DNA from: Psammoneis japonica
Lineage: Eukaryota
Assembly (NCBI GenBank): GCA_008632985.1
Contig: QPGO01000084.1
Location: 62,001 to 126,000 of the forward strand
Direction of reading: 5' to 3'
Length of the DNA stretch: 64,000 bases
In this document: piece after piece, positions 34,901 through 64,000 of the stretch
Layout: each line of letters begins with the position of its first letter
Position numbering within the stretch: position 1 is the stretch's first letter
Notes under the pieces: model-generated
What the model was told of the DNA's origin: nothing
Databases searched by the model: none
The model's input: only the letters and a program-made list of their open reading frames with translations
Position numbers and translations under genes: made by a program

Positions 34901-35075
34901 CTTTGGAATGCTGTAACATATCCGTCAGAGAACTTTAGCAATTGCAAAAGAGCATTACAATACAAGATACACAAAAATCACATCAATCGTTTCTATAGTT
35001 CTACTTTCTAGATGTAGTGTAGTCTACAATATCTGTTCGTTTCTCTCGCTCGGATCGAGTGGCGAAATCAGAAGA

Positions 35076-35410
35076 GTGGCAACAGACGTAGTCGCCGCAC
35101 AGAAAAAGACATCGTCGTGTTTTTGCAGTCGAGACAATCGACTGCAAATGGAATACTGACTTGAAATATCCAGAGGTGGCAACAGACGTAGTCGCCACAC
35201 AGAAAAAAAGACACCGTCGTGTCGTTGCAGTCGAGACAATCGACTGCAAACGCAATACCGACTTGAAAGACAACGCCGTGTAGTTGCAGTCGAGACTATC
35301 GACTACAAACGCAATACCGACTTGAAATATCCAGAGGTGACAACAGACATAGTCACCGGAGAAATAAGAGCATTGAAAGAATGCATCATCTTGTAGTTGC
35401 AGTCGAGTCG
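35076..35410. repeat. Array of palindromic units (second copy at 42150-42484)
   Basis: TTGCAGTCGA-GACAA-TCGACTGCAA hairpin at about 35123, 35225 and 35284, partial at 35396. Confidence 0.8.
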
Positions 35411-38438: not shown

Positions 38439-39215
38439 GTCCTGAACACCATCACTTCATCGTAAAAAATGAGCTGCCAATGCGGCGAGACGAAGAGAAA
38501 CTCACTCAAGCAGATCCCGAGAGGCATGGCACTGTTTCCAAACGAGCAGATTGCAGCTGCTGTGCAGAAATGAGCATCACGCTGATTGGAGCAACATCAG
38601 CGAGGATGAAAATGTCGCAGGTTCCCAGCGAAATGAGTGTCACGCTGATTGGAACAAGTTGTCGCTGATGTTGTTCCGAACAACATCAGCGAGGATGCAA
38701 GTGTCGCAGGTTCCTCTGCTAAAGAGCGGATGGGATGCTCAGTGCTCCTGTGCTGTGAAAGATCCTGATTGATTCTTCCTGACAGATGCCGGCATTGTCA
38801 TTGCGACGACGTCGAGCGAGATCGCTCCAGCTGACAAAAAAGAATTTGAAATTCCGACGTAGAGACGAGCAGCAATTGCCCCTTGAAGAAAGCCACGTCA
38901 TGCAGTGCTGCACTGCACTTGAAGTGATGACGTGTTCAGATGCTTCCATCATCTTTTCGCTCTCTTTCGAAACAAACACGACACGACACTTCGTGACCGT
39001 GCGATGAAACCTCCCCCCCCGTCCCGTTGCTGTAAACAATGCCTGCAGCATGACTCCAGTGGCCTCTCTAGCGAATCGCATTTGCTGCGTTTGATGAGCA
39101 ACAAAGGCAATGACAGTGCTTTTACCGTTCCCACTTGGGTGATGTTCCTGTTTGGTGTGGTGGCGAGACATTTTGTTCCTCATTTTCTTTTTGATTCTTC
39201 AGATCAATCTCGTCT

Positions 39216-39878
39216 TTGCTGGCATCTATCGGGCCATGTTGGTGCTCACATTTCCCACGCATGTTTTCACACGAGCCGGTTGTGCCATCAGTCTTGCACA
39301 CAGTCTTGGCTGCTGCTCCATCTCTGCTCTGGACACGCATCGCAAAGAGCTTGGTGTCTAGCATGACACAAGTCTCATCGATTGGATGCCTTCGGAAACA
39401 CGACGCCGTGGCCAACGTCATTCGCGATCAAAAGGTGGAGGCCATGATCATTCGGGCGTTTCTGGTCTTGCGCAAGGTTCTTTGCTCTGTGGAATCCGCT
39501 ATTGAGGGACGCCAAGATGCTACAACCACTTACAAGCATGAGCCTTTTGGCGAATTTACGAGAAGTTTGTCGACCCTGACGTCCAGGGAGGTGGAACGGA
39601 CGTTCAATGCTCTCGAAGAAAACAGCGACGGGCTGTTGGAGCCCAAAGAGTTCGCATGTTTACTCAACAAACTTGGCATTCCAATCACCATGGAAATGTC
39701 CAAAAAGATTGTCCAAGAGCTTGACACAGACGGGGACGGATTTGTGAGCAAAGATGAATTCATGATCTTTTACGAGCAATGTGTCGTCCAGAATAAAACC
39801 ACGCCATTCCCAAAGGAGAAGACAGAAGCATTGTTTGAGATGTTTGATGCCGATGGCAGTGGAGAGATCACAACATAA
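39216..39878 (+). pseudogene. EF-hand protein fragment, copy 1
   Basis: ELDTDGDGFVSKDEF, and FDADGSGEITT* truncated within the loop. Confidence 0.65.
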
Positions 39879-42800
39879 GGAGACGCTCGAAACCTTTTCC
39901 TTGGGCTTGCGTGAGCGCGGTGAAGACGGCAGTGGCACCATGCACTGGACATCTACAATGAAATGGGAGTGGAGCGAATTAGAGACGGCGAGTGCACTGG
40001 AAGAAATGCAGGAGCGTTCACTTGGATGCGTCTCTTGGGTGTAACGGGATTCATACTTGCCACAGGGCGCCCAAGGTCTCAAGGCGGTGATAAAATGCAA
40101 GCTTGGGCATGATCCAGTCGAGGTGGACACGGAAGACATGGTGCAAGTTGCGCAAGAACGACCGGTCGACATGGCGACCCATTCTGCGTCGGAAACCTGT
40201 GCCGACCTTTTCTCTCTATGAAAGCATGTTTACATGTTTATCTTTTGCATTTGCACCGTCATTCCCATGGGACCCGAAGGTGTCTTGCGCGAAGGGAGTG
40301 GCACTCTGTGTGAAACATTGCTCATGGTTCAAGCCGCAAAGAAAAATGTCGTTTGTCCCAACAAGCAAGTTGACGCCTTGGCCATCTTTCACGATGGGCA
40401 ATTACTGGAAGGTGAAACGTATGTTGGTAGAAAGGTGTGCATGGTGTCTCGAGACGGGTGTCTGTCGCTCGAACGTGGTTTGCAAGTTTGACTTGAAACC
40501 GAGCGCGTTTCAAGGTTTGATTGACAGTGTTGATCGGTGCCGGTTTCTTACCTTTGCGATTGAAATGGAGGGTGGTATGGATCGGACCTAGATTTGCAAC
40601 TATGATTAGGTACCGGTAAGTTCTTGTTGTTGATTAATGTTCTGCAGTTTTAGTGTTGTACTCGCGGTTTGCTGTCGTTTCCCCCCCTGTCAGATTCGTT
40701 GTCAGATTGTCGAGCAGCTCGAGATGCTTCGTGATCGACTCAGTTGGGTGGAAAAGCCGTATGTTTCCTACGCACGCACAAAAGCCAAACGTTCTTGGTG
40801 ACCTTTTCCTACGTTTACGGTGTAAAAAGCTAATAGGCCTCTGTCAAATATCTTGTTTTGTTTTCGTGGATGATAGACTTATCGCGAAACATGCAATTGA
40901 GCAACGTAGTTACTGAAACTGATGTTGTTTGTGGTATATCATAATCCATGATTTCTATACCTAAGCGCCTTCTGAACGGAAGTATGCAATTAGGAAGCAC
41001 TTCGTGAGAAGTAGGGACGGTAGCGCCGCTTTCTAGAGTCCAATTTGTACGTGTTCGTTCTCCCTTGAATTAAACCATCAGTACAGTCGCCCTGATGCTC
41101 AAAATACCGTATTTTCCCGTCATTTAAACCACCCCACAGAGTCGCTTTCCGTCATAGCCGCCATGAGTTGTCCAATCACATTGGCAGCCAGATTACATTT
41201 TTCACATGGTGAACGCAACAACTCAACCATCATGTTTAGATTGAACTCTGGGAGCTTGACATCGAAAACAGTCATTCATTTGATGTGCTTCAAAGCACTG
41301 CACTGTGCTTGGTGGAGCAATTGAGAGATGCCATTTTGTGGCATTGTGCACCTCAGAGACTTTAAACAGCAAAGAGGTTGACCATTGAAAAGGAAAGAGG
41401 TTGACAATCAAGTGGTGATTGGGTTTGCCAATTTCTGAAAATTGTGAAAATGACAATTGTGATGCTTGGCAACCAACAGCCAGAAGAAAGAAATGCTTGA
41501 GGCAGCTTCTTTTTGCAGCTGAATGTGAACTGTCACGGCGAAAGCAAGGAGTACATAGACGGAACAGATGGGTTGATATTCCGGCTACTGCATCGACCTG
41601 ACGTATCCGTTGCCACGTCTTCCTCTTCATCGCCAGTGCGGTGTTGATGTAGCAACAAATTTCGTAGCGGAGCGAGCTTCGAAACGTGACTAGCTTCTTG
41701 GATGCCTATAGAACAATAGTTCTTGCAGATTTGTAGACCCCCGTCTGTAACTTAACATTAGGGCCCTAGGCATGAATCGATACTGCCTTTCGCAAAATGT
41801 ACTGCCCAGACAAAAGCAAGATGTAGATAGACGGAACGGATGGGTTGATATTCTGGCTAGTGCTGGATCGTCCTGACGTACCCCGTTGCCACTGCAACAG
41901 CCGCATGAAACGAATGGTAGAATACGGTAGTAGGACGCATGTATTGACGCGGTAGTCTAGCGCTCCTTCCAACACTTTGGAATGCTGTAACATATCCGTC
42001 AGAGAACTTTAGCAATTGCAAAAGAGCATTACAATACAAGATACACAAAAATCACATCAATCGTTTCTATAGTTCTACTTTCTAGATGTAGTGTAGTCTA
42101 CAATATCTGTTCGTTTCTCTCGCTCGGATCGAGTGGCGAAATCAGAAGAGTGGCAACAGACGTAGTCGCCGCACAGAAAAAGACATCGTCGTGTTTTTGC
42201 AGTCGAGACAATCGACTGCAAATGGAATACTGACTTGAAATATCCAGAGGTGGCAACAGACGTAGTCGCCACACAGAAAAAAAGACACCGTCGTGTCGTT
42301 GCAGTCGAGACAATCGACTGCAAACGCAATACCGACTTGAAAGACAACGCCGTGTAGTTGCAGTCGAGACTATCGACTACAAACGCAATACCGACTTGAA
42401 ATATCCAGAGGTGACAACAGACATAGTCACCGGAGAAATAAGAGCATTGAAAGAATGCATCATCTTGTAGTTGCAGTCGAGTCGATCAACCACAAACACA
42501 ATGCCAACTTGAGAGATCAGCAGGCCCAAGGTGGCGACAGAATGCAGACACCAAAGAACCTAAACAGGGGATTGGAAGTAGCGGCTGGCTTCTTGTCTCC
42601 CTCCGGAGTGACGTCCATGCTCTCTTGTTGATCCCTCGCCTCCCGGCGATTGGGATGTAGGGAGGCTTTGCATTATTGGGTGGCACAGCAAAGTTGAAAG
42701 TGTTGGAGCATACAGCAGCGGCCGCTTTGTCGTTGGTATCACCAAACCCGGGAGCGTTCACCGCGGCTGGAGCAGCAGTGGCCGCATTGTCGTTGGCAAC

Positions 42801-44619
42801 AGTAGTGGTGCCAAACATGGTTGAGTCAGTAGGGTCAGCCACGTCCGGGCTCCAACCAACCAAGCGGGTAGGAGTGGCTGGAGCCGAGCTAGATGGAAAC
42901 CCGGGAGAATCCGGTGAGGAAGAGCGGAGCGGTTCAATGGACCACGGGTCAGCTTCGCCTATTTGTGGCGCGAACTTGCATCCCGCCAGGAGAAAGTCGT
43001 CCCAACCTGACAGTTGGAAATAAATCGCAACAAGCCAAAAAAAACGTCTTGTAACTGTAGTCTACATTGTGCAAGATTCGACCGATGGGAAAAGTTGCGC
43101 TGTGGAACGCTCCCTTGCCCTTGATCTGCGTCATGTGAGCGGGCATGGACGGACGAGACTATTTTTGGAGGATTTGTCGCACAAAGATCTTGGAGGTTGA
43201 CAGCAATGGCAACAGAGACATTAACACTTGTCAGAGTTGTTCTCTTGAGATTGTGGCAAAAGTTCGTTGGGATTTTGAAGAAGGGCTGAATTGAAAATAC
43301 CGGTGACCATCATCATGGGGTTGTGGTCGTGTCCTGTCTGCGACCAAATGGAGTTGAATCGTGACTGTCGTAATTTGATGCGTGCGCAATTGAAAGAAAG
43401 CAGGCCCCCTGCGGAAACGGTGCCCTGTCGGTCTTGCACCCTAGCTGTCGTTGTTGTTGCTGCCATTGTTTCGCTTTGTGTCGTTGCTCAGAACATGATG
43501 GAGTCCTTGGCGACTCCAAGTCATTTACGATGACAGGGAAATGCTCGAATGCAGCAATGGAGAAGCGGGGCCGGCCACTGGCAGGTTGGTCTCCGACGAC
43601 CCTACTCGAAGGGTGGCAGCTGTCAAAACGTAGACTGTTTGCATGATTTCTTCGAGCGTGAAGACCAAGCATCTGCAAAAAAGTCCCGCTGAGTTCAAAA
43701 GGCTCTCAAACTAGACACCAGAACTAGCTTTTACCTCTCTCGGTTCGGCTGCAGCAAGCAGCCGTTATGCACTGTTATTTCAGTGCGCGCAGCATCGAAA
43801 TGGCTGCTCAATCTCATCCACGCATCCTTTGAACGGCCTGCTTTCCTTTCAACGCATTGGCGAAAGTGCGCTCCGTCACTGTCTTTTCCCAATCACTGAG
43901 TTCCGACAGAATCTTGTTCTTGTTTGTCGACAGGTCCACACAGCAGGGCAGCACCTTCTCCACCACAGTGGAGCGATTGCAATCAGATGAAACGCAAACT
44001 GCGGAAACGCAGCAGTCACATGAAAATTTGGAGGCCATTGCTTCTGCAATGCATTCGGCCACTTTTGGTTGATCAAAGTCAGAGTCGACCATTTGATTGT
44101 TTTTCCACAGTCAGCTGGCGTCATGCCATCAATGCCGTCTCCCAATCACGATCGTTTGCTCTTTTTTTGACAAGATCGTAATCATTGATAGATTCGTCCA
44201 ATTCCTTGAGCAGAAGCGCCATGGAAGGCGTTGGTGGCTCCAAGGAGGGCGGAATGACCACATCTTCTTCTTCTTTCTGCCAACCACCACTGTGCTCGTA
44301 CGGCGATCCTCCAAACACAGCAAAAGGTGATGAATGCGCAAGGGGTTCAGAAATGTTTGTGCCGTCCACAAAGCCAGCAGAAGGCTGCTGTTCGGAGGGT
44401 TGGGGGATGCGCCTGCTTGGAGGAACGGGTCCGGCTTTCACGGGGATTTCAATCTCGGGGTTGTCAATGCAACAACCTGTCTTGACAACAATCTTGATTG
44501 CGTGTCGACACGAAATGAGTTTTCCTGTAAATTTGTCATTGGCATCCTGTCAAACGTGGTTTGAAATGCGAAAACGACAAGGGCGAGCTCCACGCAGGCA
44601 ATTGCCCACAGAGAAGACA

Positions 44620-45512
44620 TCAGTCTTGCCGCACGACCGCACCAGAGCACGTGCCATTCTCCAGCTCCTTTTGAACATCTTGAAAGTCCTCCATGCTGCT
44701 TTCAGTGGATGCAGTTTCCCAAGCAAACTGGGGAAAGTCGACCGTCGCTGGTGTACGAACTTTAAATTCGCGGTGGCTCTGCGCAGACCATTCGAGTGTT
44801 TCTTGGGGGGTTGCTTGGATGGCAGTCACTGCAACGGTGGCGTGATTTTCGCAAGACATGCGAACTTTTGTCACGCTCTCTCCCTTGTCCAACATGGTGT
44901 CTTGTGCGCATGCTCAGAAGAGAATCTGTCCTCGATTCCAGCAACAACACGAGCGGACCTGTTTCTCAACGGGCTCTCCGCGTTATGGTGGCGCTTCCTT
45001 TGCAGGGGCTTTGCAACAATTGTCGCTGGTTGCTTGGCTTTGTAGTCGCCAATCCATCCAGACCCTTTTAGCTGTGCACGCATTTCACAGGCAATGCCAT
45101 GTTGGTTGGAAAACGAACGCCCCGCAGCCTCCATGGACGATGGCAACCCTTCTGGCAGATTCACTTGGAACTTCATCTGGTGCCTTCCTGCCTGGATCCT
45201 GTTGTTTACAATGACGTTTTCGTCAAGCGGCACATTAATTTGGATCAATGGTCATGTCGCTTCTGGCATGCGCGTGTGACGATCTTGTTGTTGTGTGTCG
45301 CCTGATGATTGATGCACGTCTTCGTGTTCCACCTTTGCGATTTCATGTCCTTCCAGCAAAGCAACACATTCTTTCGCCGATGCTTCCTTGTTAATGTCAA
45401 GGTAGACACTTCCCTCCAGCATCATGGAGCCTGCTTGAAAAATGCTCGATTCTATGGAGAGAAAGAGAGACGCAAATGTGACAATTGCGTGAGAAAACCG
45501 GTGCTGGAACAT
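44620..45512 (-). pseudogene. Arrestin-domain gene, degraded, copy 2
   Basis: Duplicate of 37552-38438 with independent substitutions and an extra stop. Confidence 0.6.
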
Positions 45513-46334
45513 GTCCTGAACACCATCACTTCATCGTAAAAAACAAGCCACCAATGCGGCGAGACGAAGAGAAACTCACTCAAGCAGATCCCGAGAGGCA
45601 TGGCACTGTTTCCAAACGAGCAGATTGCAGCTGCTGTGCAGAAATGAGCATCACGCTGATTGGAGCAACATCAGCGAGGATGAAAATGTCGCAGGTTCCC
45701 AGCGAAATGAGCATCACGCTGATTGGAACAAGTTGTCGCTGATGTTGTTCCGAACAACATCAGCGAGGATGCAAATATCGTAGGTTCCTCTACTAAAGAG
45801 CGGATGGGATGCTCAGTGCTCCTGCGCTGTGAAAGATCCTGATTGATTCTTCCTGATAGATGCCGGTGTTATCATTGCGACGACGTCGAGCGAGATCGCT
45901 CCAGCTGATAAAAAAGAATTTGAAATTCCGACGTAGAGACGAGCAGTAATTGCCCCTTGAAGAAAGCCACGTCATGTAGTACTGTACTGTACTTGAAGTG
46001 ATGACGTGTTCAGATGCTTCCATCATCTTTTCGCTCTCTTTCGAAACAAACACGACACGACACTTCGTGACCGTGCGATGAAACCTCCCCCCCCGTCCCG
46101 TTGCTGTTAATAATGCCTACAGTATAACTCCAGTGGCCTCTCTAGCGAATCGCATTTGCTGCGTTTGATGAGTATCAAAGGCAATGACAGTGCTTTTACC
46201 GTTCCCACTTGGGTGATATTCCTGTTTGGTGTGGTGGCGAGACATTTTGTTCCTCATTTTCTTTTTGATTCTTCAGATCAATCTCGTCTTTACTGGCATC
46301 TATCGGGCCATGTTGGTGCTTATATTTCCCATAC

Positions 46335-46952
46335 ATGTTTTCACACGAGCCGGTTGTGCTATCAGTCTTGTATACAGTCTTGGCTGCTGCTCCGTCTCTA
46401 CTCTGGACACGTATCGCAAAGAGCTTGGTGTCTAGCATAACACAAGTCTCATCGATTGGATACCTTCGGAAACACGACGCCGTGGCCAACGTCATTCGCG
46501 ATCAAAAGGTGGAGGCTATGATTATTCGGGCGTTTCTGGTCTTGCGCAAGGTTCTTTGCTCTGTGGAATCCGCTATTAAGGGACGCCAAGATGCTACAAC
46601 CACTTACAAGCATAAGCCTTTTGGCGAATTTACGAGAAGTTTGTCGACCCTGACGTCCAGGGAGGTGGAACGGACGTTTAATGCTCTCGAAGAAAACAGC
46701 GACGGGCTGTTGGAGCCCAAAGAGTTCGCATGTTTACTCAACAAACTTGGCATTCCAATCACCATGGAAATGTCCAAAAAGATTGTCCAAGAGCTTGACA
46801 TAGACGGGGACGGATTTGTGAGCAAAGATGAATTCATGATCTTTTACGAGCAATGTGTCGTCCAGAATAAAACCACGCCATTCCCAAAGGAGAAGACAGA
46901 AGTATTGTTTGAGATATTTGATGCCGATGGCAGTGGAGAGATCACAACATAA
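46335..46952 (+). pseudogene. EF-hand protein fragment, copy 2
   Basis: ELDIDGDGFVSKDEF and FDADGSGEITT*. Confidence 0.65.
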
Positions 46953-49843
46953 GGAGACGCTCGAAACCTTTTCCTTGGGCTTACGTGAGCGCGGTGAAGA
47001 CGGTAGTGGCACCATGTACTGGATATCTACAATGAAATGGGAGTGGAGCGAATTAGAGACGGCGAGTACACTGGAAGAAATGCAGGAGCGTTCACTTGGA
47101 TGCATCTCTTGGGTGTAACGGGATTCATACTTGCCACAGGGCGCCCAAGGTCTCAAGGCGGTGATAAAATACAAGCTTGGGTATGATCCAGTCGAGGTGG
47201 ACACGGAAGACATAGTGCAAGTTGCGCAAGAACGACCGGTCGACATGGCGACCTATTCTGCGTCGGAAACCTGTGCCGACCTTTTCTCTCTATGAAAGTA
47301 TGTTTACATGTTTATCTTTTGCATTTGCACCGTCATTCCCATGGGACCCGAAGGTGTCTTGCGCGAAGGGAGTGGCACTCTGTGTGAAACATTACTCATG
47401 GTTCAAGCCGTAAAGAAAAATATCGTTTGTCCCAACAAGCAAGTTGACGCCTTGGCCATCTTTCACGATGGGCAATTACTGGAAGGTGAAACGTATATTG
47501 GTAGAAAGGTGTGCATAGTGTCTCGAGACGGGTGTCTGTCGCTCGAACGTGGTTTACAAGTTTGATTTGAAACCGAGCGCGTTTCAAGGTTTGATTGACA
47601 GTGTTGATCGGTACCGGTTTCTTACCTTTGCGATTGAAATGGAGGGTGGTATGGATCGGACCTAGATTTGCAACTATGATTAGGTACCGGTAAGTTCTTG
47701 TTGTTGATTAATGTTCTGCAGTTTTAGTATTGTACTCGCGGTTTGCTGTCGTTTCCCCCCCTATCAGATTCGTTGTCAGATTGTCGAGCAGCTCGAGATG
47801 CTTCGTGATCGACTCAGTTGGGTGGAAAAGCCGTATGTTTCCTACGCACGCACAAAAGCCAAACGTTCTTGGTGACCTTTTCCTACGTTTACGGTGTAAA
47901 AAGCTAATAGGCCTCTGTCAAATATCTTGTTTTGTTTTCGTGGATGATAGACTTATCGCGAAACATGCAATTGAGCAACGTAGTTACTGAAACTGATGTT
48001 GTTTGTGGTATATCATAATCCATGATTTCTATACCTAAGCGCCTTCTGAACGGAAGTATGCAATTAGGAAGCACTTCGTGAGAAGTAGGGACGGTAGCGC
48101 CGCTTTCTAGAGTCCAATTTGTACGTGTTCGTTCTCCCTTGAATTAAACCATCAGTACAGTCGCCCTGATGCTCAAAATACCGTATTTTCCCGTCATTTA
48201 AACCACCCCACAGAGTCGCTTTCCGTCACAGCCACCATGAGTTGTCCAATCACATTGGCAGCCAGATTACATTTTTCACATGGTGAACGCAACAACTCAA
48301 CCATCATGTTTAGATTGAACTCTGGGAGCTTGACATCGAAAACAGTCATTCATTTGATGTGCTTCAAAGCACTGCACTGTGCTTGGTGGAGCAATTGAGA
48401 GATGCCATTTTGTGGCATTGTGCACCTCAGAGACTTTAAACAGCAAAGAGGTTGACCATTGAAAAGGAAAGAGGTTGACAATCAAGTGGTGATTGGGTTT
48501 GCCAATTTCTGAAAATTGTGAAAATGACAATTGTGATGCTTGGCAACCAACAGCCAGAAGAAAGAAATGCTTGAGGCAGCTTCTTTTTGCAGCTGAGTCA
48601 ACAAAGATGAGCACACACCAGGGGCTTGTGGAGAACAGGAAGTTCTTGAATGCACAAAGTGAGAAGAGAGTCAGTGCACCACTCTTGCTTGTTTTGAATC
48701 TTGGGCAACCCTCTTCAGGTGGTGCACTCATTGGTTGACATCACTTTTTGCTCTGTGCTGGCTGGTTGAGAGGTTGGTGGCATTTTCATGATTCGCAGCT
48801 TGAGGCATGTTTTGATGCATGAGCACATCATGTGCAACGCCACCTTCAGAACATGCTGCTTGCCAGATCCAGAGTCAACAGCTCTCTGTGCTCAAGCTTT
48901 GCCAGCCAGACTTTTTGTCACAATGCACCTCTTCTCCTGTCACTGTGGTTGCCTCCATCAAAGCCCAAAGTCCACACAGCCCTGGCCATCTACAAAGCAC
49001 TCCTGCAGAACTTTTCTGCCAGCTTCCCTTGCACAAAGCAGCTCTTGGCAACAGCTCCACCCACGTGCTGGGCTGCAGCAAAAGACTGTCTTCCAAGCTG
49101 CCACATGAGGTGCCCAACTTGTTGGGGTTGTGCCAAGCTCTTCACATCACAAAACAAGGTGTTTCTGGCACTGGTGATGGCAATGTGGAGCCCTTCCTGT
49201 GCAGCTTTGCAGGGGCATGGATGCCTCCAGAGTGCCAGTCCAGCCACAAGCATCATGCCATCCTTGCCAGTGCTTTGCCAGCAGGGTGCAGCGCCAAAGC
49301 TGCCTGAGGAGCCTTGGACACCAGCAGATCAATGCCAGCGCAGTGCCGCTGGCACAGAGTGCAAGCTGGCTGGACTGCCCTGCCCCACACATGGTGCCCC
49401 CCTTTTGCAACTGGCAAGTGCCAACCTGATGGACACGCTGTCATGAAAACTCCCTGAGCCAAAGCAGGAGCTGGCATGTGAGCCCCTGTTGCCCCCCAAA
49501 ATGCCACGAAGCTGCAAAATGGCACAAGCATCCTCAAGCTTGCTTGTCCGTGCCACAGGCCAATTTGTTGACACACCACTCTGCCCCCCCCCCCCCCCCC
49601 CCCCCAGCACAAGTGGGAGAGTGCACTTTGCCGTGGCTCTGGCTGGAATGACAGATGTGGCTGCACTCCACACAAACAACAATGCATGCCCTCAAAGAAC
49701 AGCCAGTTGAAGGTGCTTTCTCACACAGCTGGCTGACACTTTCCTGTGGTTGACTGTCAAAAAAGAGCAAAGGTCAAGAAGGACAGATCATCAGCTGCAG
49801 CAGAGCATGAGCTCCCCACTGTGCTGTGCCCAGCCAAGGCACT

Positions 49844-50119
49844 TGACAGGATTTGAACAGGATTTAGGTGCGCGCGAAGTATCGCGCGCTGTTTAGTTTA
49901 CCGTGCACAGTTTTGTGTGCTTTAGTTCCGCGCGTTCACGCGCGATGTAGTTTGCTTTCGAGCCACAAGGCTCACAAGAATAATAACAGTAGCCCGATTA
50001 TACCGACTTACACGTCTTTCGGCTCCTGTAACGGTCTCTGAGCGGAGACTCATCTGCTATTTAGACAGCAGTAAGGAGTTATTGTTTGAATTCTTGCCAT
50101 TTGCCTTCAATTTCTATCA
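49844..50119 (+). repeat. 5' LTR (276 bp)
   Basis: TGACAGGATT...TTTCTATCA; matches the 3' LTR with 18 transitions and no indels. Confidence 0.95.
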
Positions 50120-51061
50120 GATTAACAGTCTTGCTCATTGTCAACCCATTGAGCAACCGCCATCGTCGTCGTTGATTTACCAACGACGCTATTTTTTTAA
50201 TTCTACGTGGACCTCCGTATATATTCTACATACATCGGCGAGTCTACGCGCATTCAATACCAGGGCATCGGCAGGAAGTTAACGTCACCGTCAAGTCTCC
50301 TTACCGCTGGATATCTGGATTGATTATACTACCTTTGATCGCTGAAGACATACATTCAACGGTCATATCCAAGTCTATCCTTGATCCTCATCCCTTGATG
50401 TACCTGTTCATCGGTTAACGGTCAAGAACCCTGCATGTTCAAGGATCTTCGTCGCTGAAGACATGTGTATATATACATGTCTTCACGGCCAAGAACCTGT
50501 ACCCACTCTTCGGACTGCGGTTTTGCCACCACTCTACAAGCACACCGAGTCCATTGTACCTGATCTACCCCGGACTGCTGGTGCTCTGCAGTTCTACTAG
50601 GTCCACGAGGACGACTGTGAGAGCAAGCAGCCGTGATTGCAGCCTGCGTTGGGGCGAGGGTGCTTTCCCGCGTTTGTTCGTTCGTCCACAGCGCCTGACG
50701 CCTGCGTCAACTGGCCAGCCTGATCGGGAAATCCAACCGACATAAAACAAGAACGGCTCGGGGGTCTTGTCCACCTCCAGTCAGCTCACCTGCAGGGGTT
50801 TACAACCCGCTGCTCCGCTCGCAAGCAACCCAAAGCGCCGCCAGCTGTGGGTTCGGACGTGCCGGCACAACTCTACGGACCGGACAGGAAGTTTGGCACT
50901 TGACAACAAACAGGATGACAAAGCCCGGCGACTTCTGATTTTAAGACAGTTCAAGATTTCAAGTCAAGTCCATTTCAAGTCAAGTCCATTCTCACCCAAG
51001 TTTCGAGTCTGCCTTCGCTTCCCAACCAGAATTGATTGTCCTGACACCATTTTTGTCTGCC

Positions 51062-54000
51062 ATGGTTCTCACTCGTCAGCAACAAACCGATGGTTTCGAG
51101 CACGTGGTTGGAACCGTGCTTGCCCAAGGTGCTGGGAGTCCTCTTCGTTTGGCTTTGGCCCAAGACGGCACGGACTCATGTCAGGAACTGTTCACGTTCA
51201 CACCGTCCCAAATCGACTCGCTTGAGTGCGACAACGGCGCTGATGCAATCCCTTTGCCCCGTGGTCATGAGAACATGTTAGCAGCACTGGTCAGTCTGTA
51301 CATTGTTAAAGCACACAAAGGTCTTGACGTTGCCAACGACTCCTCTTTGTTCACGCATGACGAGTTCCTTGCCCACCGCCTCAGCCCCGACCACATGTCT
51401 TCTGTGTCCATCGGCAGCTCACCCCTTGCACCTCCACATGTCACCAACCCGACCAAGGCACGCGACCCGGTGCGGGACTTCAAGCGAGGCATCAAGCGTG
51501 ATCCCACTGCTTTCACGGCTCTCAAATCCGACAAGCAGTGGCACACTTGGCACACCTCACTTGTGGCACAAGCCCATGCCCAAGACGTCGAGTGCACTCT
51601 AGACTCGTCGTACAAACCGACCAGCCCCGAAGACAAACTGCTCTTTGCTGAACAGCAAAAGTGCATGTTCGCCGTCTTCGAACGCATCCTTCTCACCGAC
51701 AAGGGCAAGGCTCTCATTCGCGAAAATGTGGGGTCTTCTGACGCACAGACCGTCCACCACTCCTTGTCTGAGTGCGCGCTTGCCTCCACCCGCGCATCTG
51801 TCGAGTCCTCCACCCTGCTCACGTGCCTCACCACCGCGCGTCTTGGTGATGGCACTTGGAAAGGTCCGACCCACGGGTTCATCCTTCATTGGCAAGATCA
51901 GCTGCGCAAGTGCGAGGCACTCATCCCGGCCAATGACCACTTCTCTGAAGGACAGAAGCGCGTCATGCTCGAGAATGCCGTGCACCCTGTCGAGGAACTC
52001 CGTGCTGTCAAGAACCAAGCTGATCAGCATCGCACGCAGAGTGGCAAGAGCCTCACATGCGATCAACACTGTGGCTTGCTCCTCTCCGCGGCAGCTCAGT
52101 GTGACAGCACGTTTCAACCCAAGACGACACCTCGAGCTCCCCGACGCGCCATGTGCGCACACGACGTCTGCTCCGAGGAACCGTCCGACGATGTGTTCTA
52201 CGACATTGACAGCGACGTTGACGTCCTTCAAGCCAATGCTGCCTGCACCCGCGGTCCCAGCCTCACCGGTGTCCAATGGAGACGTCTCCCTCCCAACCAC
52301 CAATGGCTCTGGGATTCGTTGCCCGATTCCTCCAAGGCGATCATCCTTGAGCATTCTCGTCCACCTCCCCGCAACCCGCGAGCCAGCAACTGCCATGAGT
52401 CTGTTACGGCCAACCTTCACGACCAACGCCTTGGGAGTGACGGTGATGTCCACTTGTCCAACACGACTCCTGCTGACTCTGGTGACTCCGCCCCACATGT
52501 GGACGCCACTTCGGATGATCCCATCCTGGCGCACCTCACCAAGCGCACGCCACTGCCACCCGGTGATCTGCAACGTCTGTTGTCTCCTGACCAAGCCCCC
52601 AATGCCAGTCGACCGGGGCCATCCGCCGCTTCCTCTGCCCCGCCAGCTTCTGCAGATGACACAGAACTCAACGGCGCACTTGCCGCCGCGTTGACAACCA
52701 CAATGTCATTTGCTCTGCCTCTGCTCATCGATCCACACGCACTGGCGCTCCAGTCGATCGTGGGGCCAACGGCGGCATTGCTGGCGACGACGTTCGCGTC
52801 ATTGCACGCACCTCTCGCCAAGTCGACGTTCAGGGCATTGACGATCATCAATTGGCAGACATCCCCATTGTCACCGCTGGTGCCGTCATTGAGACCCAGC
52901 ATGGTCCCGTCATCGCCATCCTCCATCAGTGCGCATGCACGGGAAAGGGCAAGACCATCCATTCCTGCGGCCAGCTCGAATGGTGCAAACAGGATGTCAA
53001 CGATCGCTCTGTCAAGGTGCCCAACGGCTTGCAACGTGTTGCCACTCCTGATGGCCATGTCATCCCCATTGACATCAAGGCTGGCCTGCCTTGTGTTGCC
53101 ATGCGACCTTGCACTGACGCCGAATGGGACACCCTGCCCCATGTCGTCCTCACCGGTGATGACACATGGGACCCTTCCGTCCTCGATCACTCTGTCACTG
53201 ACGACGACCAGTGGCACGACGCGATCTCTGACCCACAGGACGATCCCACTGCCAACCTGTTTGACGAGTGTGGCAACTGCCGTCATCGTGTCGTTGTCAA
53301 CGAGACCATCTTGTCCGCTTCCTTGTCTGCCGATCACGCGTCCGCCCTCGATGATCACCTCATTCCGAACGACGACATGTTCTGCGAATGTCATCTGCAT
53401 GCGATTGCCCCCCAGGGCGATGACGTTCCACCTCCGGAGCGCACTGTGCAGCCCAAGGATCCCCCCTTCGAGTCTCTTCGGCCTTGCTTTGGCTTCCTGC
53501 CTGCCGATGCGGTCCGTCGTACTTTTGACTGCACCACGCAGTGCGCCCGCATGCCCGCCGGCACACACCTTCGCAAGGCCTGCAAATCACCCAACCCCGC
53601 CCTTAATGTGCACCGCCGCAACGAGCCTGTCGCCACTGACACCGTTTGTGCCGACACCCCGGCCGTCGACTCTGGCTGCACCAGCACCCAACTGTTTGTT
53701 GGCACCGAGTCTACCGTCACTGACGTCTGCGGCACTGAGACGGACAAAGAGTTTGTCAACACACTCGAGGATCAGATCCGTGCACGTGGTGCCCCATCCA
53801 AACTCATCAGCGACCGTGCTCAAGTTGAGATCAGCAACAAAGTGCTCGGGATCCTGCGCGCCCTCTTCATCTCTAGCTGGCAAAGTGAGCCTCACCAGCA
53901 ACACCAAAACTTTGCCGAGCGTCGATGCCAGACCGTGAAGCGCATGGCGAACACTGTCATGGATCGTTTTGGTTCGCCCGCCCACACATGGCTGCTGGCG

Positions 54001-56730
54001 CTCATGCACGTGTGCTTCGTGCTCAACCATGCAGCGTCCCCACGTCTCCACTGGCGCACGCCCCTCGAGACTCTCACTGGCTCCACCCCGGACATCAGCC
54101 CATTGCTTCGCTTTCACTGGTGGGAACCCGTGTGCTTCCACCTCGATGACTCCGATTGGCCGTCTGAATCCCATGAGTTGCGTGGACGCTTCGTTGGCAT
54201 TGCTGAGCACGTCGGCCACCAGATGACCTTCAAGATTCTATCTGATGAGACTCAGAAGATCCTCCACCGGTCCAACGTCCGCTCCGCTACCCCCGATCCT
54301 GCCGTTCGAAACCTGCGTCTTGATCCTCCTGATGGGGAGCCACCTGAAACCATCATCAAATCTCGCCATGACGACAACCCCGTCGACTCTCCTGATGGGG
54401 AGATCAGGACACCCAAGATGCCAGTTTTCGATCCGCAAGACATCATTGGACGTACCTTCCTCATGCAGCCACAAGAGGACGGACAACACCACAGAGCTCG
54501 CATTGTCAAGGCCGTCGAAGACCACGAATGGAAAGTGAACGGCAATCCCGAGCTCACCAAGTTCGTCTGCTCTGTCAACAATGACGAATGCGAGGAAGTC
54601 CTTGCCTGCAATGACATCATGAATCACATTGAGCAAGAAGACGAAGACACCACTGTTTGGAAATTTCGACGCATCGTGTCACACGAAGGACCTCTGAAGC
54701 CTCACGACCCAACCTGGAAAGGCTCCAGCTACAACATCATGCTTGAATGGGAAAGTGGGGAGATCACGTCCGAGCCTCTTGCCATCATCGCCAAGGACGA
54801 CCCCGTCACCTGTGCCATCTGTGCACGAGAGAACGGACTCCTCGACACGGATGGCTGGAAGCGGTTCCGCACCATCGCGAGGCGCCAAAAGAAGCCATTT
54901 CGCATGGCCAACCAAGCCAAGCTTCGCTCCTTCCGCACTGCACCCCGCTGCAAGTGTGGATGCGAAGTTCCCCGCAACTACAAACACGCCATGTCACTGG
55001 ACGAACGCAACGGCAACCGCAAGTGGGGAGACACAACCAATCTCGAGATGGACCAACTCGACGAATGCGAAGTCTTCCATGACTGCGGGCCCTTCAAGTC
55101 TTCCACTCCTCCTGCGGGACACAAGAAGATCCGAGTGCACCTGGTGCACGATGTGAAACACGACGGTCGCCACAAGGCACGACTCGTAGCCGACGGGCAC
55201 CTCACGGACGTACCTGTCGACAGTGTCCACTCCGGAGCAGTCTCCCTCCGTGGCCTTCGGCTGATGATTTTCCTGGCCGAACTCAACGAGTTGGAGACAT
55301 GGGCCACCGACATTGGCAATGCCTGCCTTGAAGCCACCACCAAGGAGAAGCTTTACATTGCAGCTGGACCCGAGTTCGGCAAACTCGAAGGACACATCCT
55401 TGTCATCCACAAGGCACTGCATGGACTGCGCAGCTCCGGTCTCCGCTGGCACGAGCGCTTCGCCGACTGCCTGCGAGCTGAAGGCTTCTTCCCCTGCCGC
55501 GCCGAACCCGACATTTGGATGCGCAGGAACGGCGACCACTGTGAATGCATTGCCGTTTATGTGGATGACCTCGCCATTGCCATGAAGGACCCTCAATCTT
55601 TCGTCGACACTCTCACGGAAAAGCACAAGTTCAAGCTCAAGGGTGCGGGACCCATTGAGTTCCATCTGGGTTGCGACTTTTCCCGGGAACCCGACGGAAC
55701 CTTGTGCCTGTCTCCGCGCAAGTACATCGAGCGCATGGTCGACAGCTGTGCCCGACTGTTTGGGGAGAAACCTGCCACCAACGCCCTGTCACCTCTAGAG
55801 AAGGGTGACCACCCCGAACTGGACACTTCCGAACTGCTGGGACCCGATGGCATTCACAAGTTCCAGTCTCTTGTTGGTTCACTCCAATGGGCAGTGTCTC
55901 TTGGTCGAATTGACATTGCCATGGCCGTCATGTCACTCTCTAGCTTCCGAGCTGCGCCCCGTCAAGGCCACTTGGATCGTGCCAAACGCATCTGTGGGTG
56001 CCTCTCCAAGATGCGACACGGTGCTCTCCGCGTTCGTACGGAAGAGCCCGACCATTCGGATCTCCCTGCTCCGGCCTGTGAATGGATGCATTCCGTGTGT
56101 GGTGAAGCAGAAGAGATGATCCCGAAGGACGCTCCACCGCCCCTTGGCAAGTTCGTCACTGCCACCCACTACGTCGATGCAAACTTGTGCCATTGCATGC
56201 TCACCGGACGCTCTGTCATGGGAATGCTCCACTTCCTCAACAAATTCCCAGCTGATTGGTTCTCTAAGAAACAAGCCACCGTGGAGACTGCGACCTGCGG
56301 GTCTGAATTTGTTGCCGCAAGGACTTGTGTTGAGCAGATTGTCAACCTGTGCATCACCCTGCGCCACCTTGGCGTCCCGATCCGCAATGTCAGTTGCATG
56401 TTCGGTGACAACAAGTCGGTTGTAGACAGTGCCACCATCCCGCACTCCAAGTTACACAAGCGACACACCGCACTGTCGTTCCACCGTGTGCGTGAGGCAA
56501 TTGCCTCTGGTTGCCTTGAGCTCCACTTCATCGAAGGCTCCCGCAACCCTGCTGACATTCTCAGCAAGCATTGGGGTCACTCCCAAATCTGGGACCTTCT
56601 CCGCCCCCTCATGTTCTGGAACTTCATTCCATCCGAAATCGAATCTGTTTCTGTGGCTCCTCAAGCAAACTGGGGAGTGACAGGATTTGAACAGGATTCA
56701 GGTGCACGCGAAGCATCGCGCGCTGTTTAG
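51062..56730 (+). pseudogene. gag-pol polyprotein with a frame change near 52675 and heavy Tyr->Cys/His conversion
   Basis: Gag DFKRGIKRD; protease VDRGANGG; integrase LISDRAQVE and QNFAERR; RT HKARLVA and YVDD; RNase H GSEFVAAR and NPADILSK. Confidence 0.9.
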
Positions 56731-56953
56731 TTTGCCGTGCACAGTTTTGTGTGCTTTAGTTCCGCGCGTTCACGCGCGATGCAGTTTGCTTTCGAGCCAC
56801 AAGGCTCACAAGAACAACAACAGCAGCCTGATTGTGCCGACTTGCATGTCTTTCGGCTCCTGCAACGGTCTCTGAGCGGAGACTCATCTGCTGTTTAGAC
56901 AGCAGCAAGGAGTTGTTGTTTGAATTCTTGCCATTTGCCTTCAATTTCTGTCA
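56678..56953 (+). repeat. 3' LTR (276 bp)
   Basis: TGACAGGATT...TTTCTGTCA followed by GCACT. Confidence 0.95.
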
Positions 56954-58416
56954 GCACTGGCACATTGGAGACACTGCATTTTTGAGCGAGAGCACAACAC
57001 TGCTTGCAAGTGTGGCTGTGCAGGTCAAGTGACATGCCCAACATGAGCATGTCCACAAGCAGCTGAGAGCTGTCGGCAAGGGCGTCTTAGAGGTGCAGCC
57101 ACTTTGGGCCAGTGAGAAGCTTGCAAAACTCTTGTCCTGGCTGTGTGGTTGAAAAAAAAAGTGAAAAGCTCAGAGCAAAGCTGGTGGGTCCAAGAGTCAT
57201 TGAGCATGCCAACTGTGGCTGCTCCCTGCACAGATCACTGCAACACCTCCAATGTTTCCTCAAGAGCTTGATCACAATGCAAGCAGTCAAGTTGGCAAGT
57301 TTTGCTTCTCCCTGGCGCTCTGCAAATGTGGTGGCGCACAATCATTTTTTGTCATCCGTCGCATGTTTCGCACGCACATTTCTGCGTGTTCCATCATAAA
57401 AAATTGTTCCACACTGCCTGTTTTGCGAAGCCAAAGGCTTTCTGTTGTCTGCACTCATGTCAACAAAAATGCGCTGGGCATGTTCTTTGATGTCTAAAGA
57501 ACACACCCGGGCATGCTGCAAAGAATGCACTTCAAGTGTGGAGGAGGAGATGCGTTCGCAAAATTGCCTCTTTTTCTGTTGGCGATCATTCATGCATCCA
57601 TTGCTCAACAATTTTACTGCGGAGCTCGCACGCAGAATTCTGCGGGCCCAATGTCACAAAAAGTCCCACCCAGGACTGGAACCCGTCAGCCAAACCATGC
57701 TGGAAGAGGAGCACATGTGGAGCTGCCTGGCAGCTGGTGGGGTGCTCAGCTTGGTGGAACAGCACACTCAGTGTCACATTGTCACACTGCAGCTGCGCCA
57801 TGCATGCCCACCCTTTGCACCGCTGCAGCAACTGCCTCGATGAAGAAGAAGCCAATGAGCCTCTCTTTCCCTGCTTCATGGTCAATTTTGCGTGCGTTTT
57901 CAATGGCTCGAATCCCCCCCTTTTTCCCTTTTCCTTTTGTTCAGCCACGCATGCTCAATGAACGAGTTGTTTGCCTTGTGAACGCGTCAGCGCAGTCGGT
58001 CTGGTTTGACTTGACCGCCATTTTTTGAAACCGACGCCGTCCAAATTGTTTTGTCGTCCATTTTTTTGTGTTGATTTTCGCACCCAAACAAACCGCCAAG
58101 CGAACTCACAAGGATACGGCGAGCAAGAAAAAGAAGATGGGTCGCTCACCTTCATACGGTACCCTGATTGCCCACCCCGCCTGTGACAGGGGAGCTGTGT
58201 GTGTGTTCGTGGTTGCGCGAGCACGGCTTCGCCGTGCGTTGAGTTTCAATGTTAATGTGCACATATATGTGTATATTCCTGCTACTGTTAGCATTATTTG
58301 TCTATTAATGTATAAATAAATGTAAGTACATTTATATAAAATTATAATGAATAAGATATAAACTGCCACGCAACCATGACATCACCATATTCTCCCCTAC
58401 CGGTACCACAGGGGTG

Positions 58417-61100: not shown

Positions 61101-61899
61101 AAAGATGATCACCTAGTCCTGCAAACGGCTCTAGAGAAGATGAGGCACAGATGGAGATGGAAAGCGACGCGGGTGGCGAAGACGCTGTTCAAAAGGACGA
61201 ACGGCATGATGCAAATCAGGTTGGTACAAAAGGAGGACGCGGCCGTGAGTGAGGTTGTGACCGCCATGTGGGCCATTGAGGCGGATGTGGGAGTACAGAT
61301 GTTGCGATACATGGCCACTTCTCGCATGGGAAAGTCGTCAAATCATTTCAATGGCGTTCTACGAATGGCAATCTCTGCTGTAGGTGCGGCGTTAAGGATG
61401 GATCGTCCAGATGAAGTATTTTTTTTTAATTAGCTCATGATTTTGCAATTTTCTCGTACTTCGCCCGTGTTATTTTGCGATGCCTCTGAGAACCCCCAAA
61501 CACTTCTGAGTGTGTCCAGCCCCCATCAGGGCTGTTAGACCTTTATGTGAACTGCGCTTTTCAGGCGCATCCCAACGAGGCAGCAGTGGAAGGCAAGGTG
61601 TGCACACCACCACGCAAGTCCTTGGCAAGAGCGGAAGGCCAACGAGAAGCCACCTTTGTTGCGCGCAGTGCAGTTGGTGCAATTGTCAGCGCCGCACAAG
61701 CACACATGAGCGACCGTTGTGCAGGAAAAGGCATGCGGGGCCTTTGCTGAAATTCTTTAAATCCTGCTTGCATCAACATGAATGTCTCATGAAAATGTCA
61801 AATCGCCTTGTAAATCACACCAGCACATGACGGCATGGCACGCATGCTGTCGGCATCACTTGCCTTTTTGGTGGCATGGTGCCGTGTCAGAAGAGAGAG

Positions 61900-64000
61900 A
61901 TGCCATGCAGTCAGGGCCAACCATTTCAACTCAACAACTCAACATGCAATGGTGCTCCAGTGGACCACAGTGCCAATGTGACGATGTTTGTGTCATTGCC
62001 CTTGTTGCTGCTCACAATGGGATTGACGACCACCAGCTGGTTGGCATTCCTGTTGTCACTGCCAGCGGTGTCATCCACCCTCAATGTGGACCTGTCATTG
62101 CCATCCTTCACCAGTGTGCTCACACTGGAAATGGCAAGACCATGCACTCTTGCTTCCAGCTCCAGGGGCACAAGCATGATGTCAATGACCAGCTGACCAA
62201 GGTCCCCAATGGCTTGCAGTGCATTGCTGCCATTGACAGCTGTGTCACCCCCATCAATGTCAAAGGCACCATTGACGGCTGCATCATTCCCATCAACATC
62301 GAAGGCCGAAGCCAAATGGGGAGCTTTTTTCCCCATGTCATTCTTGCTGGCAATGACACCTGAGACCCATCTGTCCTTGACTGCCAGCTCACCAACAATG
62401 AGAAATGGCATGATGCCATGTCCAACCTTCAAGCCAACCCAACCACCAACCTCTTTGACAAGTTTGGCAACTGTCATGATCACTGGCATGTTGTTGACAA
62501 TGCAGTGCTTGTGGACCCTGTCCTTGATGACCATGTCCTCCAATTTCTTCTGTGGGTGCCACAAGCACAAGATCAACCCCAAGGATCCCAACTGTGAATC
62601 CCTGTGCACCTGCTTGGGCTTTCCTCCTGAAGGATGCTCTTTGCCACACTTTTGATTGCACCACACAGCATGCTTGAATGCCTGCCAGTGCAAACCTGAA
62701 GAAGGTGTGCAAGTCACCCAAACCAGCTCTCAATGTGTCCACCAATGCAGTGAACCAGTTGCTGCTGACACTGTGTGCTCTGACACCCCTGCCATTGACT
62801 CTGGATGATGTGTCAGCACATGGCTCTTTGTTGGCACAGAGTCCCTTGTCGCTGATGTGTGAGGCACCAAGGCTGACAAGGGGTTCATCAACATGCTCAA
62901 AGGCAACATTCACAACCCTGGTGCTCTGTCCAAGCTCGTCAGTTGTTGTGCTCAGGTTGAGATCAGCAACAAGGTCCTTGACATCCTCTGAGCTCTCTTC
63001 ATGTTCAGCTGGCAAAGCAAGCCCACCTCACCAACAGCACCAGAATTTTGCTGAAAGCTGCTGCCAAACAGTGAAGAACATGGCCAACACCATTGTGGAT
63101 TGCTTTGAATCCCCGGACTGCACTTGGCTCCTTGCCCTCATGCACGTGTGCTTTGTGCTCAACTGCGGGGCTTCTGCCATGCTCTGCTGGCATGCCTCTG
63201 CCAAGGTGCTGTCTGGATCTACTCCCAAAGTCAGCCCCCTCCTCCATTTCAACAGTGGGAACCCTTGCACTGCCACCTGGACAATTCTGACTGGCCGTCT
63301 GAATGCTGCAAGTTGTGCTGTCACTTTGTTGGCACCGCCAAACATGTCAGCCATCAAATGACACCAAAGAGATTCTCTCTGACAACACTCAGAAGATGCT
63401 TTGCCACTCAAGTGTCCATTCTGCTGCTCGCAACCTGTGCTGTTGTCTGCTTGCAACCTGTTTCTTGATCCTCCTTGAAAAACATCTGCTGAACCCATCA
63501 TCAAATCTGACACCAACTCCAAGGATTCACCAGATTTGCCAGATGGGGAGGTGATCAGAATGCCCAAAATTCTGGTTTTTGACCCCAAGGACATCATTGG
63601 ATGCACCTTCCTCATGAAGCCACAAGAGGACAGACAGTGCTGCAGAGCCCACTTTGTCAAGGCCATTGAAAACCAAGACTGGACAAAAATTGGTGACAAC
63701 CAAGAACTCATCAATTTCATTTGCTCAGTCAACAACAAAAAGTGCACAAGGAAATCCTTGTCTGTGATGATGCCATGCACCACATGGAGCAAGAAGATGA
63801 GGATGCCACCATCCGCGGAAGTTCCAACACACCGGCTCACACAAAGGGTTGTTGAGACCTCACATGACCCCTCACTGAAAAGGCTCAAGCTGCCATGTCA
63901 TGCTTGAATGGGAGAGTGGGGAAATCACTTCTGAGCCTCTTGCCATCATCGCCAAAGATGACCATGCCACTTGTGCCATCTGCACATGCAAGTGCAGATT
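61900..64000 (+). mobile_element. Second, older copia pol remnant (protease-integrase region) related to the 49844 element; continues past the window
   Basis: GPVIAILHQCA, KSPKPALNV, HQQHQNFAE, FDPKDIIG and EWESGEITSEPLAIIAKDD, colinear with 52750-54830. Many stops and frameshifts; almost no TA, few CG. Confidence 0.9.

Follow-up and report, generated by a model that had tools for sequence, protein, structure and literature searches.

TpA-exclusive hypermutation of chromosomal DNA has been reported from the chlorarachniophyte Bigelowiella natans. According to the preprint of Mettrop et al., integrated viral DNA of this alga acquires A>G/T>C changes only at TpA dinucleotides, and these arise de novo in mutation-accumulation lines (10.64898/2026.01.13.699255). 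The targets are local regions of integrated giant-virus and virophage DNA, the rate is about 1000 times that of the background, and the authors propose an ADAT2-like deaminase as the agent (10.64898/2026.01.13.699255). A comparable signature is described here for the pennate diatom Psammoneis japonica. It was found in a stretch of 64,000 nucleotides (contig QPGO01000084.1 of assembly GCA_008632985.1, positions 62,001 to 126,000 of the forward strand; the whole stretch is called the window below), which carries a Ty1/copia-type retrotransposon with one unmutated and one hypermutated long terminal repeat (LTR). A neighbouring pyruvate carboxylase frame also places the host among pennate diatoms: its best named matches, at 78-81% identity, come from Nitzschia, Pseudo-nitzschia, Seminavis and Mayamaea, and its similarity to centric diatoms and other stramenopiles is lower. 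As far as the text of the preprint goes, the likeness lies in changes that are almost solely A>G/T>C, in the conversion of TpA to TpG or CpA and in the local hitting of foreign DNA, and TpA-poor reverse-transcriptase genes are mentioned there as well. The targets differ, being LTR retrotransposons, flanking DNA and duplicated host-like genes in the diatom and, in the preprint's account, integrated viral DNA in B. natans. The main text of the preprint gives no preference for the base at +1 or for other flanking context; its Figure 2B and its Table S2, on the 231 de novo mutations of the lines, may bear on this point. A literature search for TpA>TpG/CpA hypermutation in diatoms, or for a +1 preference, found neither, and the B. 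natans preprint was the only related report. What is new here is the quantified T-A-pyrimidine preference, together with a strand choice that is set site by site; TpA hypermutation itself has been reported from B. natans.

In Neurospora and other ascomycetes, repeat-induced point mutation (RIP) saturates tracts of repeated DNA with dinucleotide-specific transitions, namely C>T at CpA, which creates TpA. The diatom tracts share the tract-wise, saturating and dinucleotide-specific manner. Unlike in RIP, TpA is destroyed here, and duplicated DNA is not uniformly hit, as 34452-35990 and 40400-41522 are spared.

The native tRNA target of TadA and ADAT2-ADAT3 is A34, which follows U33. The motif of TadA/ADAT2 is given as 5'-ACG (PMC10661471), and the TadA-8e variant is described as editing A within YAC (PMC13109818). 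These enzymes resemble the diatom process in that A becomes I and is read as G, and in the T or U at -1, since all hits here lie at TpA. They differ in that T at +1 is as good as C here, G at +2 is not enriched (10/71 hits against 39/216 in the background), and the substrate is chromosomal DNA on both strands. A TadA-type enzyme had been named as a candidate in an earlier, sequence-only reading of the window; such an enzyme would account for T at -1 and C at +1, and would leave the equal use of T at +1 and the missing enrichment of G at +2 unaccounted for. ADARs likewise cause A>G with a preference for a 5' U, and their hotspot is given as 5'-UAG (PMC10661471). In the diatom, the rate at TAG is low, and the asymmetry of the LTRs together with hits on two strands places the event in DNA. 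DNA polymerase eta (Pol eta) is responsible for WA>WG mutagenesis in somatic hypermutation; A>G at TA is common to both processes, whereas AA is spared here. In dinoflagellates, 5-hydroxymethyluracil (5hmU) is made by a TET/JBP homologue and lies mostly in transposable elements, and according to older work it replaces T preferentially in TA and TC (PMC11572971). As described there, this system is similarly directed to transposons, prefers TpA and occurs in a protist of the SAR group (stramenopiles, alveolates and Rhizaria). It differs in being a modification and not a recorded mutation, and in targeting TC, which is unaffected here.

The copia element and its LTR pair

The retrotransposon is 7.1 kb long, and its LTRs of 276 nt have TG...CA termini. 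The interior matches RVT_2 (PF07727, E=1.3e-25), and the pol protein has 120 homologues among the matches listed, of about 1,880 aa each and with 53-66% identity. The element and its mutated surroundings consist of the following features.

49839..49843, plus strand: target-site duplication GCACT, left copy, 5 bp, directly abutting the LTR
49844..50119, plus strand: 5' LTR, the unmutated reference copy, with 18 TA and 20 CpG
50120..56677, plus strand: Ty1/copia-type retrotransposon interior, gag-pol, integrase before reverse transcriptase, frames 51032-53938 and 52852-56730
56678..56953, plus strand: 3' LTR, the hypermutated copy, with 15/18 TA and 3/20 CpG turned into TG/CA
56954..56958, plus strand: target-site duplication GCACT, right copy, 5 bp, directly abutting the LTR
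50604..58110, no strand assigned: hypermutated tract with a TA observed-to-expected ratio (o/e) of 0.11, which takes in the 3' LTR, most of the copia interior and flanking DNA of about 1.15 kb

The identical GCACT beside both LTRs indicates a single insertion in situ, so the LTRs were identical at integration. As the target-site duplication is intact and the insertion in situ, their divergence arose in the DNA after integration. A raw alignment of 49844-50120 with 56678-56954 spans 277 nt and is 94% identical. The LTRs differ at 18 places, all of them transitions: 7 TA>TG, 8 TA>CA and 3 CpG>CA/TG, with no others. At all 18, the TG or CA state sits in the 3' LTR.

The base next to the hit adenine is far from random. 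After the seven TA>TG changes come C, T, C, C, T, T and T, and before the eight TA>CA changes, read as hits on the opposite strand, stand T, G, G, A, A, G, G and G. In 14 of the 15 changes, the mutated A thus has a pyrimidine on its 3' side. The 3' LTR retains three of the 18 TA of the 5' LTR, all in TTAG. The sequence-only reading had reported the same counts (14 of 15 changes at TAY, C or T after every TA>TG, a purine before seven of eight TA>CA, TTAG at the three remaining TA), and the complete list of differences and a recount of the remaining sites bear them out.

At YTAY and RTAR sites, only one of the two adenines has a pyrimidine next to it on its own strand, which makes the strand choice informative. 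The LTR pair holds 12 such sites (6 YTAY, 6 RTAR), and at all 12 the adenine followed by the pyrimidine was hit (p=0.00024 under random strand choice). Three of four YTAR sites survive, against 0/14 of the other sites (hypergeometric p=0.005).

Direction of change

The LTR pair alone comes without an outgroup, and polarity was established through the element interior. The pol protein of the window contains 0.5% Tyr, 3.8% Cys and 5.1% His, compared with medians of 3.8%, 0.9% and 3.6% in the 120 homologues. Columns with Tyr in at least 60% of the aligned homologues were examined in both copia copies of the window, the second being an older fragment.

61546..63996, plus strand: second, older copia-type element fragment, TA o/e 0.02, CpG o/e 0.23, used in the Tyr-codon counts

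There are 61 such columns, 53 of them usable; the eight left out read TTC (five) and TGG, GTG and TGA (one each). The usable columns hold TGY (Cys) 33 times, CAY (His) 13 times and TAY seven times, and 40 of the 46 hits have a pyrimidine at +1. In a Tyr codon, the adenine of the coding strand always precedes a pyrimidine. Tyr is kept at the same columns by 46 of 49 environmental relatives. Cys and His at columns that are Tyr in the homologues mean that TA was lost in the window, as the sequence-only reading had assumed, and they exclude a RIP-like reading.

Restriction to TpA and choice of strand

A tandem duplication elsewhere in the window provides a second, larger comparison. It is gap-free and 7,071 nt long.

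34452..41522, plus strand: tandem duplication copy A, mutated tract 35991-40400 by the model described below; 38650-40700 mutated in copy A only
41526..48596, plus strand: tandem duplication copy B, mutated tracts 43065-43588 and 43781-45773; ancestral TA kept opposite 38650-40700 of copy A

The two copies differ at 162 positions, of which 139 lie at TA sites and 13 at CpG; six are other transitions and four are transversions. Transitions account for 158 of the 162 differences, and TA>TG/CA for 139 of them, compared with 15 of the 18 in the LTRs. CA in one duplicate stands opposite TG in the other at 31 places, which are independent hits on opposite strands of one ancestral TA.

In the one-copy tract 38650-40700, copy B gives the ancestral state for 90 TA sites. 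Differences affect 56/91 TA, 3/119 CpG and 5/1,632 other bases, so that TA sites are hit about 200 times as often as other bases. The 324 AA/TT dinucleotides show two differences, and there are no C/T differences at TC/GA in this tract. The contrast between 2/324 and 56/91 fits poorly with generic GC-biased conversion and with polymerase error of the WA type. It had been proposed beforehand that changes are restricted to TpA and that equal A>G rates at AA, CA and GA would argue against a specific mutator; the first proved correct, and AA and GA are near zero.

Hits on one strand are mixed with hits on the other as they would be in shuffled order (runs tests p=0.66, 0.52 and 0.93). A single exposure of single-stranded DNA, or the editing of one RNA strand, would be expected to give strand-coordinated clusters, and there are none. 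The strand that is hit is evidently set site by site by the local sequence. Strand-coordinated, kataegis-like clustering was considered as a separate candidate and is ruled out by the runs tests.

At 39258-39259, TA became CG, with both strands hit. This is the sole case among the 107 changed TA sites of the duplication, and Arg (CGY) occupies none of the 53 Tyr columns (0/53). At 38126-38128 and 38251-38253, CAC in one copy stands against TGT in the other, and a similar case lies at 36363-36365; at these places there is an extra pyrimidine transition directly 3' of the discordant TA site.

Size of the T-A-pyrimidine preference

The preference for a pyrimidine at +1 is found outside the LTRs as well. 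In the one-copy tract, the hit rate per adenine is 28/57 before C, 16/53 before T, 7/38 before A and 5/32 before G. The odds ratio of pyrimidine to purine is 3.2 (p=0.0016), and 2.7-3.1 under two other tract limits. By site type, the mutated fraction falls from 0.83 for RTAY through 0.67 for RTAR and 0.48 for YTAY to 0.20 for YTAR. Single-hit events, in which TA is kept in one copy, have a pyrimidine at +1 in 55 of 75 cases in the duplication and in 69 of 90 when the LTRs are included. The other 20 of 75 in the duplication have a purine there, in agreement with the TAG and TAA hits noted earlier. The strand rule is followed at 12/12 informative sites of the LTRs, 28/42 of the duplication and 18/24 of the Tyr codons, altogether at 58/78 (sign test p=1e-5).

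A competing-hazard model was fitted to 161 ancestral sites. The model treats the adenines of a TA as competitors: once either is hit, the other no longer stands in a TpA. The +1 base has a clear effect (likelihood-ratio test, p=4e-8), with relative rates of 1 for A, 5.0 for C, 1.0 for G and 6.3 for T; the ratio of pyrimidine to purine is 5.8 (bootstrap 3.3-11.4). Fitted separately, this ratio is 3.8 for the duplication (p=3e-5) and 3.2 for the Tyr codons (p=0.006), and it is unbounded for the LTRs. A flat NTAN spectrum, which had been set beforehand as evidence against the preference, is not what the likelihood-ratio test gives. In a table from -5 to +5, only -2 and +1 deviate.

The TAY preference is therefore graded, about 4-6 fold over TAR, with C about equal to T. 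The original claim of such a preference stands, being borne out in three independent datasets of the window; its strength is about 4-6 fold, below the 14:1 of the LTRs. It follows from a graded preference that YTAY turns into YTGY and RTAR into RCAR, and that YTAR sites (TTAG, TTAA, CTAG and CTAA) are the last to survive.

Extent of the mutated tracts

Mutated tracts were delimited with a two-state hidden Markov model (HMM) on TA versus CA/TG. There are 13 sharp-edged tracts, which cover 29.3 of the 64 kb and have a TA o/e of 0.00-0.20. CpG is also lost within them: 3/20 in the LTR, and down to an o/e of 0.13-0.3 in old tracts. A saturated example is the following.

20932..26072, no strand assigned: saturated old tract, 22 TA left, CpG o/e 0.29

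In the duplication, the open frames include an arrestin_N-like frame (37797-38438, minus strand) and EF-hand frames (39216-39878 and 46335-46952, plus strand). The outer parts of the duplication (34452-35990 and 40400-41522) are 100% identical and unmutated. Since the tract covers arrestin-like and EF-hand genes and no recognisable transposon, and other duplicated parts are spared, the target is neither simply "transposon" nor "any repeat". The mutated tracts of both duplicates begin near the same left point (about 36,200 and 43,300), and that of copy A runs about 2 kb further. Due to this longer tract, only one of the EF-hand copies has been mutated, while its counterpart is intact.

An unmutated island of 735 nt (49865-50599), formed by the 5' LTR and the first 480 nt or so of the interior, has a TA o/e of 0.99. 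It is flanked by an old tract (48204-49859, CpG o/e 0.13) and the young tract 50604-58110. Either the promoter-proximal end of the element was protected, or the tract begins within the element.

TA-poor tracts (50604-58110, 61546-63996 and others) lack TAA and TAG and therefore contain long open frames, several at a time and on both strands; 21 frames of at least 100 aa lie across 49500-57200. For gene annotation this is a trap, as tracts that have lost these stops yield long false reading frames that mislead gene callers. The open frame 6532-8265 (minus strand) contains 2OG-Fe(II) oxygenase (PF03171), F-box and SUMO-like domains and lies mostly in the tract 6984-8319 (TA o/e 0.05). This frame is a host gene that was hypermutated, or else several frames joined through the loss of stop codons. 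Elsewhere in the window, six tandem copies of a 93-nt unit (30177-30818), whose identity to the reference is 63-92% over a comparison window of 186 nt, sit within a frame with a Tudor-like domain (30051-30935, minus strand).

Surviving TA sites and environmental relatives

The old tract retains 11 TA between 21600 and 25920, namely TTAA five times, TTAG and GTAA twice each, and ATAG and GTAC once each. Nine of the 11 thus belong to the TTAA, TTAG and GTAA contexts, which the sequence-only reading had described as the main survivors. Some TA in old tracts may be newly created. The baseline for survivors was changed from the unmutated DNA of the window to unmutated relatives. With 9,437 TA sites in 42 unmutated relatives as the reference, the TA that survive in mutated copia copies (those of the window and of TA-poor loci) are enriched 2.1x in YTAR and reduced to 0.53x in RTAY (p=5e-8).

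The TA-poor loci come from metagenomes. Three of 49 loci encoding relatives are TA-poor: L018 at 0.31, L029 at 0.27 and L036 at 0.13. At the conserved Tyr columns they have Cys/His counts of 10/6, 8/9 and 8/6, respectively, and the process is thus not confined to the assembly of the window. In L029 alone, survivors are enriched 3.1x in YTAR and reduced to 0.22x in RTAY. L029 and L036 are sister copies with 93% identity, and YTAR makes up 14 of the 25 single-hit sites between them. Close unmutated DNA relatives were sought for the three loci, and none above 70% identity was found.

L029 and L036 also share seven Tyr-codon states, four RTAY>RTGY and three YTAY>YCAY, and the hit adenine has a purine at -2 in 7/7. 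This pattern is the mirror image of the rule of the window and may reflect a different specificity in another organism.

A possible mechanism

The observations describe a process that acts after integration, is confined to tracts and exclusive to TpA, changes A:T to G:C on two strands and favours a pyrimidine at +1. After the element had inserted, local hypermutation struck a 7.5-kb tract that includes the 3' LTR. It turns A:T into G:C at TpA steps only, on either strand, and CpG decays more slowly in the same tracts. An adenine with a pyrimidine next to it (5'-T-A*-Y-3') is hit about 4-6 times as often as T-A*-R. So much is shown by the data; the agent can be proposed. It would be an enzyme that acts on DNA and is directed to silenced chromatin, most simply an adenine deaminase converting A to hypoxanthine, which is read as G. 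Such an enzyme would require T at -1 and act more readily with a pyrimidine at +1, and it would strike individual sites on both strands wherever DNA is silenced or repeated. Taken as a whole, with a chromatin-targeted adenine deaminase as the presumed agent of a post-integration, TpA-only tract hypermutation with TAY preference, this account appears rather probable to us, and a DNA adenine deaminase is our best guess for the agent.

The idea that the +1 preference itself points to an enzyme holds in part. It is a usable fingerprint; a flank bias alone proves no enzyme, since polymerase errors and spontaneous lesions are also context-biased. Stronger arguments for a directed enzyme are the dinucleotide exclusivity, the sharp edges of tracts on the kilobase scale and the near-saturation. 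Domains were scanned in 91 frames of the window: 73 of the 136 stop-to-stop frames (at least 110 codons) and 18 frames starting with ATG, GTG or TTG, the latter consisting of 16 frames of at least 200 aa and the two large copia-element frames. Adenine methyltransferase and Y-family polymerase domains were not found in these 91 frames, in line with the earlier impression that no mutator enzyme is evident in the window.

Several points weigh against a T-A-pyrimidine-specific deaminase. A deaminase domain was not found in the 91 scanned frames either. Exceptions to the preference occur, as 21 of the 90 single-hit events have a purine at +1. Preference for A at -2 is seen in the duplication only (p=6e-6) and is absent from the LTR and Tyr data (p=0.28), so that it is regarded as tentative. 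The limits 38650-40700 of the one-copy tract were picked after inspection of the data; the tests of strand choice are independent of these limits. Survivors in old tracts are depleted in TAT/ATA and not in TAC, relative to the window's own unmutated DNA, which is a poor baseline; the missing depletion of TAC fits poorly with C being about equal to T. Finally, the Tyr codons of L018, L029 and L036 do not follow the strand rule: YTAY became TG 10 times and CA 15 times, and the fitted ratio of pyrimidine to purine is 0.93, in a sample that is small and, with L029 and L036 being sisters, partly non-independent. These environmental codons count against a universal rule.

Alternative explanations

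The thymine of TpA could be considered as the target, with a TET/JBP-type dioxygenase making 5-hydroxymethyl- or 5-formyluracil in silenced repeats, followed by mispairing with G or misrepair, T>C, and a motif of 5'-R-T*-A-3'. The changes and the flank bias are mirror-symmetric, and all counts fit this explanation equally well, which also weighs against adenine as the target. A precedent exists in the TET/JBP homologue of dinoflagellates, another SAR lineage, and the account of it consulted here makes no mention of TpA erasure (PMC11572971). In the window, no Tet_JBP domain was found, and the sole 2OG-Fe(II) oxygenase (6532-8265, PF03171) belongs to a different family. TpC is unaffected, as seen from the lack of C/T differences at TC/GA in the one-copy tract. 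A further point against this reading is that 5hmU, which is abundant in dinoflagellates, pairs normally with A. Thymine targeting is considered unlikely.

Pol eta gives A>G at WA, and error-prone repair in methylated chromatin could act through a similar polymerase that inserts G opposite T at WA during patch repair after damage to 5-methylcytosine. This idea draws on the shared territory of CpG and TA loss, in the LTR (3/20) as well as in the old tracts (CpG o/e 0.13-0.3). However, WA includes AA, which is spared (2 differences at 324 AA/TT against 56/91 TA), and a Pol eta-type mutator, one of the candidates proposed earlier, is a poor fit for this reason. TA hits in the LTR reach 83% with 17/20 CpG intact, so that TA loss does not follow CpG lesions, and transversions make up only 4 of the 162 duplication differences. 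Error-prone repair therefore seems rather improbable.

The TAY bias could also have arisen by chance in sampling, or as a side effect of generic GC-biased conversion. The LTR sample has only 15 events, and the environmental Tyr codons lack the rule; on the other hand, three independent datasets of the window agree (58/78, p=1e-5), and the confinement of the changes to TA speaks against generic conversion. Either origin is very improbable.

ADAR-like editing of the element transcript before reverse transcription would be in keeping with the preference of ADARs for a U 5' of the edited A (PMC10661471). Both LTRs are made from one template, however, so editing before integration cannot make them differ, and the target-site duplication is intact. 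Moreover, two strands are hit in an interleaved manner, the non-transposon duplicated genes (arrestin-like and EF-hand) and 1.15 kb of flank are mutated too, and G at +1, which belongs to the ADAR hotspot 5'-UAG, is disfavoured (5/32). RNA editing has hardly any probability left.

Under the reverse polarity, the 3' LTR would be the original state, and the 5' LTR would have been changed by RIP-like C>T at CpA/TpG (with T>C at TpG). This reading draws on the missing outgroup of the LTR pair and can practically be dismissed. The 3' LTR passes without a break into an interior where 46/53 conserved Tyr codons read Cys or His while the 120 homologues and 46/49 environmental relatives keep Tyr, and the tracts are depleted in TA (o/e 0.01-0.13), the opposite of the enrichment that RIP gives.

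Implications

In a major marine algal group, TpA is rewritten at hundreds of times the background rate and in defined tracts. The flank rule turns this signature into a test, as a candidate enzyme must prefer T-A-C/T over T-A-A/G on DNA, and the value of the flank bias lies in this use as a fingerprint for candidates. From the rule, one can also predict the TA sites that persist and the amino-acid changes to be expected in dead elements over time, with Tyr->Cys more frequent than Tyr->His.

To our knowledge, hardly any natural enzyme is known to deaminate adenine in chromosomal DNA, and current adenine base editors were obtained by evolving a tRNA enzyme. Tentatively, and with more doubt than for the mechanism at this locus, it may be imagined that diatoms carry a chromatin-guided, T-A-pyrimidine-directed DNA adenine deaminase that erases TpA from transposons and silenced duplicates. 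Such a "reverse RIP" defence might be shared with the TpA hypermutation of Bigelowiella and hence possibly be old within SAR, and the flank fingerprint (C or T at +1, perhaps A at -2) would then be the enzyme's own specificity. If true, this would be genome defence of a new kind, and DNA adenine editors might be derived from it.

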